Below are positions 7,061 through 46,659 of a stretch of 64,000 nucleotides of DNA, piece by piece; the first letter of the stretch is position 1, and each line of letters opens with the position of its first letter. Below the pieces are notes generated by a model, which was given only the letters and a program-made list of their open reading frames with translations, was not told the DNA's origin and ran no database searches. Source of the DNA: a virus; IMG/VR virus record IMGVR_UViG_3300020446_000004, positions 1 to 64,000 of that record. One strand, given 5' to 3'. The position numbers and the translations under genes were made by a program.

Positions 7061-7818
7061 TGCCCAAGTTAGATAAGACGCAATATTCAAAAGAAGAAGC
7101 AGCTCGTTTAATGGAAATTAGACGTTTAGAAAAAGTATCTCGTCAAAAAAAAGAAATATTTGCTAAAAGAACAAAACCTATAAGTTTTATAGAAGAAGAA
7201 CCTATTGACATTGAAAGATTTAGACATAATCAAAAGTTTGCATTTGTGTTAGGAAATGGTGTAAGCAGAGGATTTGTTGAGCCGCAAGACTTAAAAATAT
7301 ACGGTCCTATATACGGATGTAATGCTTTATATAGAACTTTTAGACCAGATTATTTGGTTGCAGTAGATGTTAAAATGGTTCTTGAAATAAACAAATCAGG
7401 TTATCAAAATAAAAATCAAGTCTGGACAAATCCTAATAATTCATATAGAGGCATACAACATTTAAACTTTTTCCAACCTAGCAAAGGATGGAGTAGTGGT
7501 CCAACTGCTTTATGGTTGTCTGCTCAACATAGACATAATCAAATCTATATTTTAGGTTTTGATTACAGGGGTTTAAATGATGGACAACGTTTTAATAATT
7601 TATATGCAGATACACCTAATTATAAACGTTCACAAGACGGTGCTACATTCTTCGGAAATTGGCTTAGACAAACAGTTTCTGTAGTAAAAGAGCATCCAGA
7701 AACACAATTTTATCGTGTTATAGCACCAGATAATTACTGTCCTGACGAACTAAATACTCTTGAAAACTACAACACTATTAGTATAAAAGAGTTTAAAACA
7801 CGGTTTGTTTTACCGTAA
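7060..7818 (+). CDS. DUF115/Maf (sialyltransferase-like fold) putative glycosyltransferase
   Basis: FVLGNG.SR, YGCNALYR, PDYLVAVD, WSSGPTA and IYILGFD motifs characteristic of the DUF115/MAF/CstII-like Rossmann fold. Confidence 0.6.
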   Translation: MPKLDKTQYSKEEAARLMEIRRLEKVSRQKKEIFAKRTKPISFIEEEPIDIERFRHNQKFAFVLGNGVSRGFVEPQDLKIYGPIYGCNALYRTFRPDYLVAVDVKMVLEINKSGYQNKNQVWTNPNNSYRGIQHLNFFQPSKGWSSGPTALWLSAQHRHNQIYILGFDYRGLNDGQRFNNLYADTPNYKRSQDGATFFGNWLRQTVSVVKEHPETQFYRVIAPDNYCPDELNTLENYNTISIKEFKTRFVLP

Positions 7819-10705: not shown

Positions 10706-11881
10706 ATGTCAGAACTATTAGAAAGTCGCTGGCAGGATACAAAAACAGCACTTCTTGAAGGCCTTAACGGCACAAAGAAAAGCGTGATGGCGGCTACACT
10801 TGAAAATACTCGCAAGTATTTGTCAGAAACTGCTACAGCTGGTGCTACATCTGCCGGTAACGTTGCAACTCTTAACAGAGTTATCCTACCCGTTATTAGA
10901 CGTGTAATGCCAACAGTCATTGCTAATGAGCTTGTTGGTGTTCAGCCTATGACAGGTCCAGTGGGTCAAATCCACACATTGAGAGTACGCTACTCTGATA
11001 CAGCAGGCTCAGGCGCAAGCGGAGCAGTAGCTGGTGAAGAAGCACTTTCACCATTCAAGATTGCTGAAGCATATTCAGGTGACGCATCAACTGCTAAAGG
11101 TGCTAATACAGCAGCTTTAGAAGGTTCAGCTGGAAACAGACTAAGCATTCAGATCTTAAAGCAAACAGTTGAAGCTAAATCAAGAAAGCTATCAGCTCGT
11201 TGGACTTTTGAATCTGCTCAAGATGCTCAGTCACAGCATGGTATTGATGTTGAAGCAGAAATTATGGCTGCTTTAGCACAAGAAATAACAGCTGAAATTG
11301 ATCAGGAAGTTATCGGTTCATTGAACACACTTGCTGGTACAGCAGTTGAAACATACGATCAAGCGGCAGTATCAGGTACAGCAACATTTGTTGGTGACGA
11401 GCATGCGGCACTTGCTGTTCAAATCAACAGAGCAGCTAACTTGATTGCACAGCGTACAAGAAGAGGCGCAGGTAACTGGGCAGTTGTAAGTCCATTTGCA
11501 CTTACAATTTTACAGTCTGCAACAACTTCTGCGTTTGCACGTACTACAGAAGGTTCATTTGAAGCACCAACTAACACAAAAATGGTTGGTACATTGAATA
11601 ACGCAATGAAAGTATATGTAAACACATACGCAGGTGATGATGCAAACGTACTTGTTGGTTACAAGGGATCAAGCGAATCAGACGCAGCAGCGTTCTATTG
11701 CCCATATATCCCACTAATGTCAAGCGGCGTTGTATTAGATCCAACATCATTCGAGCCAGTCGTGAGTTTCATGACTAGATACGGATATGTTGAGCTTTCA
11801 AATACAGCTTCTTCATTAGGTAACGCGGCTGATTATCTTGCAAACGTTGCTATAACAAACGGTAACGTAAGCTTCAGCTAA
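10706..11881 (+). CDS. gp23: Major capsid protein (T4 gp23-like)
   Basis: LVGVQPMTGPVGQI, VEAKSRKLSARWTFE.AQD, EITAEIDQE, FYCPYIPL, MTRYG motifs. Confidence 0.97.
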   Translation: MSELLESRWQDTKTALLEGLNGTKKSVMAATLENTRKYLSETATAGATSAGNVATLNRVILPVIRRVMPTVIANELVGVQPMTGPVGQIHTLRVRYSDTAGSGASGAVAGEEALSPFKIAEAYSGDASTAKGANTAALEGSAGNRLSIQILKQTVEAKSRKLSARWTFESAQDAQSQHGIDVEAEIMAALAQEITAEIDQEVIGSLNTLAGTAVETYDQAAVSGTATFVGDEHAALAVQINRAANLIAQRTRRGAGNWAVVSPFALTILQSATTSAFARTTEGSFEAPTNTKMVGTLNNAMKVYVNTYAGDDANVLVGYKGSSESDAAAFYCPYIPLMSSGVVLDPTSFEPVVSFMTRYGYVELSNTASSLGNAADYLANVAITNGNVSFS

Positions 11882-11900: not shown

Positions 11901-11928
11901 AAATAGGCCCTACGGGGCCTATTTTTTT
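11901..11928 (+). terminator. Rho-independent terminator after the major capsid gene
   Basis: AAATAGGCCC-TACG-GGGCCTATTT followed by a T run. Confidence 0.9.
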
Positions 11929-11943
11929 GACTAAATATTTGTA

Positions 11944-11987
11944 CGTTCATCCTACGGGACGGAAGTAGCATTATGCGAAGGAACGCA
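11944..11987 (+). promoter_or_regulatory. Glutamine riboswitch class I (glnA RNA motif) candidate
   Basis: CGTTC-A-TCC(TACG)GGA-C-GGAAGTA-GCA(TTA)TGC-GAAG-GAACG-C reproduces the three-stem glnA architecture: P1 CGUU..AACG, E-loop GGAAGUA...GAAG. It lies upstream of an RBS and a short ORF. Confidence 0.8.
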
Positions 11988-12011
11988 CTCAACTGTAAAA
12001 AGGAGAGTGAT

Positions 12012-12164
12012 ATGAACTACAGAGACTTCGAACTTGCTCGCAAAAAAGAGCGTACTAGATTAAGTCATTTAGCAATAATACGCAAACTTATCAAAGAACG
12101 CCAATCTAGACCACGTTGCGAGAAGAATATCTTGAGTAATGATCCAAGATTGCAAAAAATATAA
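12012..12164 (+). CDS. 50-aa basic peptide downstream of the glutamine riboswitch
   Basis: AGGAGA RBS at 12001-12006 and ATG at 12012. The track start at 11973 lies inside the riboswitch. Sequence MNYRDFELARKKERTRLSHLAIIRKLIKERQSRPR... Confidence 0.65.
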   Translation: MNYRDFELARKKERTRLSHLAIIRKLIKERQSRPRCEKNILSNDPRLQKI

Positions 12165-12183: not shown

Positions 12184-12212
12184 TTGACATTAGTAATTTA
12201 ATTTGCTATAGT
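12184..12212 (+). promoter_or_regulatory. Sigma70-type (early) promoter
   Basis: TTGACA-17 nt-TATAGT with extended -10 TG. Confidence 0.8.
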
Positions 12213-12218
12213 GTATAC

Positions 12219-12474
12219 ATAAGCTAAAAACTTGTAGCTAGAGTTTTTATATAGTGCAAGGAAGAGGCGTTTACCAGAGCGTCGAACTTGGCAAGTTAGG
12301 GGTGGTACCCAGGCATGGTTGTAGAAATACGTTGTGTCACATCGCTCTCCCGAGCGGAACTTGGCTCCCTGGCTTTGAGAATGGTATCTCGGTCGAGGGG
12401 TTGGAGGTATAACCTAGTCCTCCCTATTTTGCTTATTCTATTTTAGGTATACAAGGCAACTTGTATACCTTTTT
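12219..12474 (+). ncRNA. Unknown structured ncRNA (about 250 nt) with its own promoter and terminator
   Basis: No ORF. GC-rich core 12256-12432 with many short helices (GGCGTT/AGCGTC, AACTT/AAGTT, GGGT/ACCC, GTA-GAAA-TAC, CGCTC/GAGCG, GAGA/TCTC, GGAGG/CCTCC), bounded by a consensus promoter and a terminator. Confidence 0.65.
12445..12474 (+). terminator. Rho-independent terminator
   Basis: AGGTATACAAG-GCAA-CTTGTATACCT-TTTT, a perfect 11-bp stem. Confidence 0.85.
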
Positions 12475-12483
12475 CCTTTTGTG

Positions 12484-12580
12484 ATAAATACATACGTCAG
12501 ATAGTGTGCCGCAAGGCGGACTTATGCTGTGACCCACAGCGTAGCCCATAGAACGGGCATCGGACTTCTATAAAGGAGAA
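12484..12580 (+). promoter_or_regulatory. Late promoter plus structured 5' leader (four-way junction candidate)
   Basis: ATAAATA, then GTCAGAT/ATCGGAC enclosing GCC-GCAA-GGC, TATGCTGTG/CACAGCGTA and GCCC/GGGC hairpins just before the AAGGAGA RBS. Confidence 0.5.
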
Positions 12581-12585
12581 AACAA

Positions 12586-13047
12586 ATGGGAAGACCACTT
12601 AATAAAAGATTATTCGGAGTTGCAGGTGTAGGTCCTACAGCGGCCGGTAACGAAATCAAAGTAAACTTTCATAACGGCTCAGGTGTTAAAGAAGGTTATA
12701 TCGTAAAACAGCTAGGATCAAAAAAATTCCGTTGTGAAGAAATTGAAACAGCTGGTACATTTGATTGTACACTAAAAACTGGGATACTGCCTGCAAACTT
12801 ATCAGCAGGTGAAATGGCAATTTCATTCAAAATGGATGACGGCGAAACTTACGGTGTAAGTAAAATTTCAGGACGTAAAGCAACATTAGCAAAACCAAGT
12901 AATACTGGCTCTAATGCATTTGACGGAAAGTCTGTTGCATGGAACTTTGCAACATCTACTTCAGATGGTGCCGCACAAGTTGAAGAAGCTGGTGACGATA
13001 ATACATTATCAGGTACTGACGATGATGATTTCACAGAAGACGCATAA
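12586..13047 (+). CDS. Hypothetical virion structural protein
   Basis: 153-aa ORF with strong RBS and late promoter; paralogous to the next ORF. Confidence 0.75.
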   Translation: MGRPLNKRLFGVAGVGPTAAGNEIKVNFHNGSGVKEGYIVKQLGSKKFRCEEIETAGTFDCTLKTGILPANLSAGEMAISFKMDDGETYGVSKISGRKATLAKPSNTGSNAFDGKSVAWNFATSTSDGAAQVEEAGDDNTLSGTDDDDFTEDA

Positions 13048-44854: not shown

Positions 44855-46659
44855 TGAGTCAATGGATTGCGGCAATAACAAGAGGTCATAACGGAGGCGT
44901 CTGCTTACTTAAGGATGGCAAAATTGTATTTGCAATCGAAGAAGAAAGATTAAGTAGGCAAAAATATGATGGCGGACCATATGCAAGTATGGTAAAAATT
45001 TTAAATTATACAGATAAAATTGACTTTTTAGTTATTGCACACACTCAGCCACTTGAAGAAACAGCAGGTAAAGTTGACTTTACTGGTGACGATGTTTATA
45101 CAGGACTTGCACGTAAACTTGGATTAATTGATAACAGCCCTAGTGTAGATGTGCTTAACCACCCGCAAGTAGTAGACCTAAGTCATATACATCATAAGTT
45201 ACATGCGGCCTGTGCATTTTATAGAAGTGGATTCGAAACAGCTACATCGGTTATTGTTGATGGAGCTGGTACATTTATGCCTGCACAAATGGATGGCTGG
45301 GATAATATGTTATACGAATTAGAAAGTATATTTACATGCGAATATCCATATAATATAAAAACTGTTTGGAAACATTTAGGTGGTAACGGACCATTTAGAG
45401 CGGCACACGTTCCAGAAATGACAAGCGAAAAATTTGACGAAGAAGGAACACATGATGTTATTATTGATGACGGAGCAGGTATTGTAAAAGCATATGAGGC
45501 TGTTACACAATACTGTGGATTTACCGCTATTGAAGCAGGTAAAACTATGGGGCTTTCTCCTTATGGTAAACCAAACGAAAACATACCACCTATATATCAT
45601 AATGCAGGCGGCAAATGGACAGTAGCAAATGCAAATCTTATTAGGCCTACATATCCTAATGGTGCGTTAGTTAATGAAAACTTTTTTGATGAATTAATTA
45701 CACCACAAAATACTCCGCAAAATGAATTAGTTGATTTAGATAACAGAAGAGATCTAGCATATGCAGTGCAGACACAGAGTCAACAACAAGTTTTAAAACT
45801 TATTTTGAATGCAGTAGAGCGTACAGGTAACAAAAATATTGTTTTAAGTGGAGGTTATGGACTAAATTGTGTTGCAAATTATTATTACTTAGACACGTTA
45901 AAAGATATGGATATAAACTTGTATGTTGAACCAATATCAAGTGATGCCGGTACAGCAATTGGTGCCGCTTACATTGCATATCATCAAACAACACAGAACA
46001 AAAAAGTATTACCATTTGGCGAAAGTTTATATTTAGGTTTAAATTATGGATATGATAACAAAGAAATTGGACACCTAGCAGATGACTACAATGCTACATT
46101 AGAAAAAGTAGAAATAGAAGATGTAGTAAAATTAATGCGAGAAAAAAATATTATTGCTATGTTTCAAGGACGTTCAGAAGCAGGTCCAAGAGCATTAGGT
46201 AACAGAAGTTTAATGTACGACCCAACAGATCCTAAAGGCAAAGATCATGTCAACAAAGTTAAGCGTAGAGAATATTTCCGTCCGTTTGCTGGGACCATTT
46301 TAGCAGAACATGCAGAAGAATGGTTTGATATGAGAGGCATGAAAGATTCACCACATATGATGTATGCAATGAACTGCCAACCAGGTGTCGAAGAAAAAAT
46401 TCCAAGTATTATACACGTTGACGGCACATGCCGTATACAGACGGTAACAAGAGAACAGAATCCATTATACTATGACTACATTAATGAATTCTATAAACAG
46501 ACAGGTGTTCCTATTATATTCAACACATCATTTAACTTAGGTGGAGAACCGTTAGTTGAAACATTAGATGATGCTTTTAGAACTCTTGCTAATAGCGATA
46601 TTGAATATCTATACATAGCAGAACACAAAATTTTAGCAAAGGTAAAAAATGTTAGTTAA
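44854..46659 (+). CDS. Carbamoyltransferase (NodU/CmcH/TobZ family)
   Basis: EEERLSR.K, HH..HA...FY.S.F, GKTMGL..YG, SGG..LNCVAN, D.GTAIGAA, E.GPRALGNRS, K.RE.FRPFA, HVDGT.R.QTV, NTSFN..GEP.VET motifs. Confidence 0.95.
   Translation: MSQWIAAITRGHNGGVCLLKDGKIVFAIEEERLSRQKYDGGPYASMVKILNYTDKIDFLVIAHTQPLEETAGKVDFTGDDVYTGLARKLGLIDNSPSVDVLNHPQVVDLSHIHHKLHAACAFYRSGFETATSVIVDGAGTFMPAQMDGWDNMLYELESIFTCEYPYNIKTVWKHLGGNGPFRAAHVPEMTSEKFDEEGTHDVIIDDGAGIVKAYEAVTQYCGFTAIEAGKTMGLSPYGKPNENIPPIYHNAGGKWTVANANLIRPTYPNGALVNENFFDELITPQNTPQNELVDLDNRRDLAYAVQTQSQQQVLKLILNAVERTGNKNIVLSGGYGLNCVANYYYLDTLKDMDINLYVEPISSDAGTAIGAAYIAYHQTTQNKKVLPFGESLYLGLNYGYDNKEIGHLADDYNATLEKVEIEDVVKLMREKNIIAMFQGRSEAGPRALGNRSLMYDPTDPKGKDHVNKVKRREYFRPFAGTILAEHAEEWFDMRGMKDSPHMMYAMNCQPGVEEKIPSIIHVDGTCRIQTVTREQNPLYYDYINEFYKQTGVPIIFNTSFNLGGEPLVETLDDAFRTLANSDIEYLYIAEHKILAKVKNVS

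Follow-up and report, generated by a model that had tools for sequence, protein, structure and literature searches.

A glutamine riboswitch behind the capsid gene of a jumbo phage probably gates a small basic protein

The major capsid gene of an uncultured marine jumbo phage is followed by a leader that carries a T4-type late promoter motif, a type-1 glutamine riboswitch of the glnA RNA class and a ribosome-binding site (RBS), and then by an open reading frame (ORF) for a basic micro-protein of 50 residues. Taken as a whole, these parts probably constitute a glutamine ON switch that is transcribed from the late promoter and gates a small basic effector. The riboswitch class, which also occurs in phages, and the logic of its expression platform are known; its presence in a jumbo phage, the late promoter and the phage-specific, uncharacterised micro-protein family are new. 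Phage glutamine riboswitches have been listed for years, and the controlled gene was left open or was assigned to a neighbouring tmRNA. Judged from sequence, a tiny basic protein would be the product of the controlled gene, both in this phage and in over 100 further viral contigs (among the matches listed), expressed in the present case from a late promoter. The family is common to a widespread jumbo-phage lineage and to cultured Pelagibacter phages, and makes it possible to test how phages that infect the most abundant bacteria of the sea read the nitrogen state of their hosts; phage Mosig and Pelagibacter HTCC1062 offer a culturable system for such tests. The case further points to small genes that are overlooked or given a wrong start in annotation, for example at an ATG inside the aptamer.

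The window, the 64,000-nucleotide stretch of DNA that was analysed, comprises the first 64 kb of an IMG/VR virus record of 78.6 kb. This record is 22% complete according to CheckV, which implies a genome of about 350 kb, and has a G+C content of about 36%. The riboswitch cassette lies within a head-gene block encoding a prohead protease (Peptidase_S77), a scaffold protein and a Gp23-type major capsid protein. The capsid protein is 66–70% identical to those of Vibrio phage 2.275.O, PA5oct, the Rak2-like group and Sinorhizobium phage Phosso, which are jumbo phages of Proteobacteria (identities above 60% all come from the best 76 of 2577 matching records), so that by its capsid the phage is not a cyanophage. 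No tRNAs were found in the window, and no psbA was found in two partial genomes that are 22% and 51% complete, a completeness at which absence proves little. In 3′ direction from the capsid gene, the order is terminator, CTAAATA, aptamer, AAGGAG and 50-codon ORF, with the following features:

10706-11881, + strand: gp23-like major capsid gene
11901-11929, + strand: intrinsic terminator ending the capsid transcript, with a 10-bp G+C-rich stem (11901-11924), a 4-nt loop and a T run
11931-11937, + strand: T4-type late promoter motif CTAAATA (TAAATA at 11932-11937)
11942-11989, + strand: type-1 glutamine riboswitch aptamer (glnA RNA, RF01739)
11944-11948 with 11981-11985, + strand: aptamer stem P1
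11950-11952 with 11957-11959, + strand: aptamer stem P1a
11960-11967, + strand: aptamer junction CGGAAGUA
11968-11970 with 11974-11976, + strand: aptamer stem P2
11986-11990, + strand: aptamer 3′ tail CACUC, in which C11986 is the conserved C directly after P1
12000-12009, + strand: RBS AAGGAG (12000-12005), overlapped by the anti-tail GAGUG (12005-12009)
12012-12164, + strand: gene for the 50-residue basic micro-protein, recognised by its tblastn relatives, codon-position bias and closed alternative frames

The aptamer matches RF01739 with 50.7 bits, well above the gathering score of 35 (E-value 3.6e-08 for the whole window; cmscan). The match extends over model positions 1–53, covering the full model length, and every conserved position is matched. 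An earlier note on this DNA, made from its letters, had proposed a compact glnA RNA match at 11944-11987 to be checked with the Rfam covariance model, and the match at 11942-11989 bears this out. The conserved core at 11944-11986 consists of P1 (CGUUC/GAACG), the junction ACGGAAGUA, GAAG before the 3′ strand of P1 and a C right after P1, and it is invariant in 27 distinct leaders of related contigs. P1 was fixed by the search pattern and is therefore uninformative for covariation. Compensatory changes are seen among the relatives in P1a (UA/GC, CG/GC) and in P2 (GC/AU and further types); 95–96% of the cells of these two stems are paired, as opposed to 25–53% in slid controls, and the observed covariation score was reached by none of 500 shuffles. 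An alignment of 90 distinct viral leaders (among the matches listed), fitted to a model made for this analysis, has 96% of its cells paired, and both sides change in 10 of its 16 pairs. When the leader was folded by minimum free energy, the aptamer stems were not recovered and the result was no better than for shuffled sequence (z = −0.93). The complete arrangement is found again in the 27 distinct related leaders, and the same architecture in more than 100 other viral contigs (among the matches listed), which argues that it is not a product of chance. On covariance model and covariation, the RNA is a genuine glutamine riboswitch of the glnA RNA class.

The CTAAATA motif directly follows the capsid terminator and ends 6 nt upstream of P1. 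On the + strand of the window's gene block, 11 of the 18 copies of [AC]TAAATA fall within the 3.2% that is intergenic (binomial p about 9e-13), each of them 15–116 nt ahead of a gene start. The motif is nearly invariant in 25 of the 27 related leaders. [AC]TAAATA is thus the late-promoter motif of this phage, as had been supposed for TAAATA at 11932. Among the matches listed, 94 unique stretches upstream of viral aptamers were compared; in 45 of them TAAATA ends 5–12 nt before P1, with a mode of 6 nt, the background frequency being 0.7%. This spacing suggests that the mRNA begins at the aptamer itself, and the transcript start probably lies at about 11943-11945, at the first base of stem P1. 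Metatranscriptomes showed only small shares of sequence words, and metatranscriptome contigs of relatives span the leader and the ORF at low depth; assembled contigs cannot show RNA ends, and the libraries may contain DNA.

The location of the ORF right after the capsid gene, already pointed out from the window, is the same in all 29 related jumbo-phage contigs, whose capsids are 74–98% identical to that of the window. The capsid terminator is kept in most of the related contigs, and most of the 29 jumbo-phage relatives have a homologue of a 153-residue ORF 3′ of the cassette. In 11 relatives, an extra ~450–550 bases are found between the capsid gene and the riboswitch cassette, which marks this spot as a variable insertion site.

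The product of the ORF at 12012-12164 contains 15 Lys/Arg and 6 Asp/Glu among its 50 residues, about 30% Lys/Arg, in agreement with its earlier description as Arg/Lys-rich. A tblastn search of IMG/VR found 60 relatives, and a single protein of the family can be recorded on as many as 154 contigs, of which the longest measures 226 kb. In 25 unique coding sequences, the numbers of variable columns at the three codon positions are 24, 22 and 42, about half of the pairwise codon differences are synonymous, and the other two frames are interrupted by stops in 24–25 of the 25 sequences. The third-position bias, the closed alternative frames and the kept place after the capsid gene identify the ORF as a real gene. 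A 63-residue version beginning at the ATG at 11973, a start used by some gene callers, was rejected; this ATG falls within the loop of P2 and lacks conservation.

Invariant residues in the family are N2, D5, P34, N39, D44, P45, Q48 and I50, and the best-conserved stretch is the C-terminal tail R-P-x-x-E-K-N-I-L-S-x-D-P-R-L-Q-K-I. AlphaFold2 (mean pLDDT 79.9) predicts a single helix at residues 3–32, followed by a non-helical, extended tail that holds most of the conserved positions of the family. This predicted pattern of a helix and an invariant tail suggests a peptide whose tail serves for docking on a partner. Searches for relatives of the peptide gave no Pfam family at E-values up to 1, nothing in PHROGs, one chance-level ribosomal match (E 2.2) in a profile search of the PDB, and only unnamed clusters at 0.80–0.81, the level of chance, in the ESM Atlas. 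An exhaustive profile search of 1.84 billion representatives returned 45 matches, almost all of 35–101 residues and none informative; one match of 380 residues is a repetitive ORF that aligns only to the last 13 positions. No family member was found by profile in 187 genomes of the order of a Pelagibacteraceae metagenome-assembled genome (MAG), a search in which the positive controls Mosig and HTVC023P were found. By these searches, the family appears confined to phages.

Among GenBank phages, the family is present only in four Pelagibacter phages, as HTVC023P gp47, in HTVC103P, in HTVC104P and as Mosig_00116, each about 51 residues long. In Mosig, an ATAAATA motif is followed by an RF01739 match (50 bits), from which the downstream Mosig_00116 is separated by 17 nt, and the tail CUCUU can pair with the AGGAG RBS itself. 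The cassettes of Mosig and the jumbo phage show that the link between riboswitch and peptide holds in two unrelated phage lineages. In the HTVC023P-type podophages, the gene overlaps the preceding ORF and has no riboswitch; glutamine gating is therefore not essential to the function of the peptide. In one homologue of this group, which lacks the riboswitch, loss of the stop codon has lengthened the product to 85 residues.

Buchholz et al. (2022; PMC9004378) previously described glutamine riboswitches in Melnitz, in Mosig and in related genomes from metagenomes, and assigned them to tmRNA and lysis control. They belong to the riboswitch class of the window and are carried there by phages that infect streamlined marine heterotrophs. 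The window's peptide has a homologue in Mosig_00116, whereas the window phage is a jumbo phage of a different lineage. Unlike the published tmRNA assignment, the arrangement in the window, in Mosig and in Melnitz places a small basic ORF with its own RBS directly behind the switch. The leader of Melnitz, a Methylophilales phage (MZ577097), is 86.5% identical to that of the window over 73 nt, and its riboswitch lies within the feature annotated as “SsrA”. Directly behind it, on the same strand, is an unannotated, basic 32-codon ORF of another family, with its own Shine-Dalgarno (SD) sequence and the same tail/anti-tail design, while GenBank annotates a 33-codon ORF on the opposite strand at this locus (about 46399-46567).

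The genomic setting could also be taken to mean that the peptide is no metabolic effector at all, and is instead a basic protein located inside the virion or bound to nucleic acid, or else a cytoplasmic factor that times lysis, in each case in an amount tuned to the nitrogen supply. The gene lies in a late structural block right after the capsid gene, about 30% of its product is Lys/Arg, and the HTVC023P copy is located two genes upstream of the endolysin. The Mosig copy, however, is found among auxiliary genes and tRNAs, away from the structural genes, and the peptide has no hydrophobic segment. Moreover, the eight invariant residues are not basic, which favours specific docking over charge neutralisation. 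A structural or lysis role is accordingly considered unlikely, and an effector that docks through its tail is the preferred reading.

Comparison with other riboswitch-linked peptides bears on what such an effector might be. A scan of IMG/VR with the aptamer-core pattern yielded at least 119 loci with at least 131 aptamers, including at least 14–16 tandem pairs. Almost every viral aptamer among the matches listed is then followed by a short ORF. At least 95 unique ORFs of this kind have a median length of 41 residues and a median net charge of +6, with 97% of them at +3 or more; among the matches listed, their products form about eight multi-member families, some of which match DUF4278. In species-representative genomes of cyanobacteria, the aptamer precedes IF17-like and IF7-like peptides, with the platform CGCCUC/GAGGCG. 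In SAR11/Pelagibacteraceae, SAR116, SAR86 and other marine Proteobacteria, the aptamer is often in tandem and located upstream of amtB, glnA, gltB/gltD or a porin gene. This distribution agrees with Weinberg et al. (2010; PMC2864571) and with a 2025 report for SAR86, and the presence of aptamers in SAR11, SAR116 and SAR86 means that the riboswitch class is at home in likely hosts of such phages.

The Downstream-peptide, or glutamine-II, riboswitch of marine picocyanobacteria and cyanophages (PMC2864571; Klahn et al., 2018, PMC6212724) is likewise a glutamine-sensing leader ahead of a very short conserved ORF, but it belongs to RF01704 instead of RF01739, and its peptides carry YRG repeats (DUF4278). 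Some RF01739 aptamers in IMG/VR do precede DUF4278 peptides, with the platform CUUUAC/GUAAAG.

In SAR11, SAR116 and other alphaproteobacterial genomes, tandem aptamers precede amtB, glnA and an ORF of 468 residues. The first aptamer there has a tail, CAUGC, that is complementary to a GCAUG 3′ of the second, and a long-range helix may enclose the second aptamer. Another family of riboswitch-linked peptides, of 45–53 residues, starts with MTKY, ends with D-N-P-F-Y-P and is usually located behind tandem aptamers; it is present both in bacterial genome bins, one of them titled SAR86, and in contigs classed as viral. Its C-terminal motif resembles that of the window's family by eye, but kinship between the two is not supported, with an hhalign probability of 0.2%. 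A riboswitch-linked peptide of 70 residues at 7379-7588 of a 263-kb contig of a Pelagibacteraceae MAG belongs to a family of 64–65-residue peptides from many viral contigs (G-T-S-G-Y motif), and is either a host copy or part of a phage contig that was binned into the MAG.

The association of this riboswitch class with IF17 and IF7-like peptides in cyanobacteria (PMC6212724; IF17-like and IF7-like peptides were also seen in the genome scan) raises the question of whether the window's peptide is itself an inactivating factor of glutamine synthetase (GS), either as a homologue of IF7 or IF17 or as an unrelated analogue that plugs host GS at high glutamine. Other viral aptamers precede DUF4278 peptides, and the peptide is small and strongly basic, like IF7 (gifA), which also follows a riboswitch in several cyanobacteria in the form of an IF7-like peptide. 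Homology to IF17 was rejected since Pfam gave no DUF4278 match (PF14105, YRG repeats); other viral riboswitch-linked peptides do match PF14105, two of four reaching the curated cut-off, with 26.5 and 30.2 bits. Homology to IF7 was likewise rejected, as an hhalign comparison of the family profile with 13 riboswitch-linked, IF7-like cyanobacterial peptides gave a probability of 0.1%. The IF7-like peptides have an NRQQSML-type core and three invariant arginines spaced 13 and 7 residues apart, without counterpart in the phage family, which is instead defined by its C-terminal tail motif and a few N-terminal residues; the two show no sequence relation. The earlier note had heard an echo of IF7 in the segment LIKERQS, and this does not hold: the segment is the most variable stretch of the family and the invariant residues are elsewhere. 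In addition, the OM43 host of Melnitz, whose leader is near-identical, lacks glnA according to Buchholz et al. (PMC9004378). On this evidence, a GS inactivating factor is improbable, and would at most be an unrelated analogue. The earlier interpretation as a whole is thus retained for the riboswitch, the late promoter, the platform and a nitrogen-gated small protein, and is not supported for the kinship to GS-inactivating factors.

A broader conjecture would be that phages of the dominant marine heterotrophs (SAR11-type hosts and their relatives), the jumbo lineage among them, carry varied glutamine-gated micro-proteins that are analogues and not homologues of the cyanobacterial GS-inactivating factors, and that the present family docks with its invariant tail onto a host enzyme of nitrogen assimilation, for example GS. 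We regard this as speculative and improbable. If true, small-protein inhibition of nitrogen assimilation would extend beyond cyanobacteria, and phages would use such inhibitors late in infection, re-budgeting nitrogen and ATP.

How glutamine would control the micro-protein gene is suggested by the sequence between aptamer and start codon. The tail CACUC (CACTC in the DNA, 11986-11990) is complementary to GAGUG (GAGTG, 12005-12009), which shares G12005 with AAGGAG and ends 2 nt before the ATG at 12012. This overlap with the RBS had been noticed from the window and proposed as an expression platform; the complementarity is confirmed in the sequence, and the helix is present in the ViennaRNA centroid structure. 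In a pairing test of 78 unique viral leaders (among the matches listed), anchored only on P1 and the ATG and using no model, all five tail bases pair just before the ATG in 50 leaders, whereas tail-shuffled controls average 26.6 and never exceed 33. The pairs are of the types CACCU/GGGUG, CACUU/AAGUG, CAUCU/AGAUG, CACUC/GAGUG and CGCCU/AGGUG; C-G, U-A and U-G all occur at three positions of the helix. Of the 78 leaders, 38 have exactly 2 nt between the helix and the ATG. In the model-based alignment of the 90 distinct viral leaders (among the matches listed), 96% of the cells of the helix are paired and four of its five pairs change on both sides. The helix has only 5 bp and hardly varies within the close family, so that its support from covariation comes from other peptide families. 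Since it co-varies across viral leaders both without and with a model, its role as the expression platform is upheld. The second viral platform, CUUUAC/GUAAAG, runs into the SD sequence and is mainly associated with DUF4278-type ORFs and with one other family of short ORFs.

In solved structures of the aptamer, the C after P1 forms a ligand-dependent pair with a junction G (PMC6212724; PMC11477058, which summarises the structural basis of this C-G pair). The model for the gifB leader of Synechocystis sp. PCC 6803 holds that this conserved C and the bases next to it pair with the RBS, and that glutamine binding recruits the C to the junction G and melts the helix; reporter expression from this leader rose after the addition of ammonium (PMC6212724). 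The gifB leader has a single 5′ UTR aptamer of the same RF01739 class, a tail that pairs from the conserved C with the ribosome-binding region, and a small basic protein under its control, as does the window, and both are expected to be ON at high glutamine. It differs in its promoter, which is an NtcA-controlled host promoter there and a phage-borne late promoter of T4 type here, in its platform (CGCCUC/GAGGCG in cyanobacteria, CACUC/GAGUG here) and in its product, the DUF4278 protein IF17, to which, as to IF7, the phage peptide has no detectable relation. By analogy with the gifB leader, from which the direction is taken, the element is most likely a translational ON switch.

The proposed sequence of events would begin at the late promoter after the capsid terminator, with an mRNA whose first bases form the riboswitch. 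Without glutamine, CACUC would pair with GAGUG and mask the 3′ end of the SD sequence and the spacer beside the AUG, so that translation would be low. With glutamine bound, C11986 would be drawn into the aptamer as an extra pair with G11961 or G11962, the short tail helix would melt and ribosomes would load, turning translation ON in a nitrogen-replete infected cell. The product would be a small effector that binds a host or phage protein through its C-terminal tail, with a target most plausibly linked to nitrogen or energy budgeting late in infection. That the phage reads the nitrogen status of its host late in infection, as earlier proposed, is a reasonable reading of the riboswitch, late promoter and platform.

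The same parts could in principle work with inverted logic, in which glutamine would stabilise P1 and a coaxially stacked tail helix, and the peptide would be made only at low glutamine. The tail helix directly abuts P1, making stacking possible, and the aptamer class is found ahead of amtB, glnA and gltB/gltD in SAR11, SAR116 and SAR86; these genes should be repressed by glutamine, so that the class is not ON by nature. However, the heterotroph leaders have different, longer platforms, and expression from the gifB leader, which has the same tail-to-RBS pairing as the window, goes up with nitrogen (PMC6212724). Moreover, in solved structures the ligand-dependent pair with the junction G takes up the C after P1 (PMC11477058), in competition with the tail helix, whose first pair needs the same base. 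An OFF switch is for these reasons quite improbable, and translation that is turned ON by glutamine remains the favoured direction.

That the ORF is incidental and the riboswitch acts on a downstream manA RNA or freshwater-2 RNA, or on transcript stability, is very improbable: no clear terminator lies between the ORF and the manA RNA gene, but the ORF is under purifying selection at the protein level, is kept where its downstream neighbours differ and recurs with the riboswitch in the unrelated context of Mosig, and the manA RNA has a near-consensus promoter of its own.

The manA RNA (RF01745) is located at 12184-12470 on the + strand, with 54.7 bits, slightly below the cut-off of 55.2. Its sigma-70 promoter lies at 12184-12212 and its terminator at 12445-12470, and metatranscriptome contigs cover it far more deeply than its neighbours. 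The freshwater-2 RNA (RF02980) follows at 12505-12588 on the + strand, with 76 bits and a cut-off of 49.9. It is preceded by the late-promoter motif ATAAATA (12484-12490) and includes the RBS and ATG of the 153-residue ORF (12586-13047), which is conserved in the relatives. Three Rfam RNAs, the glutamine riboswitch, manA and freshwater-2, are thus found within 650 nt.
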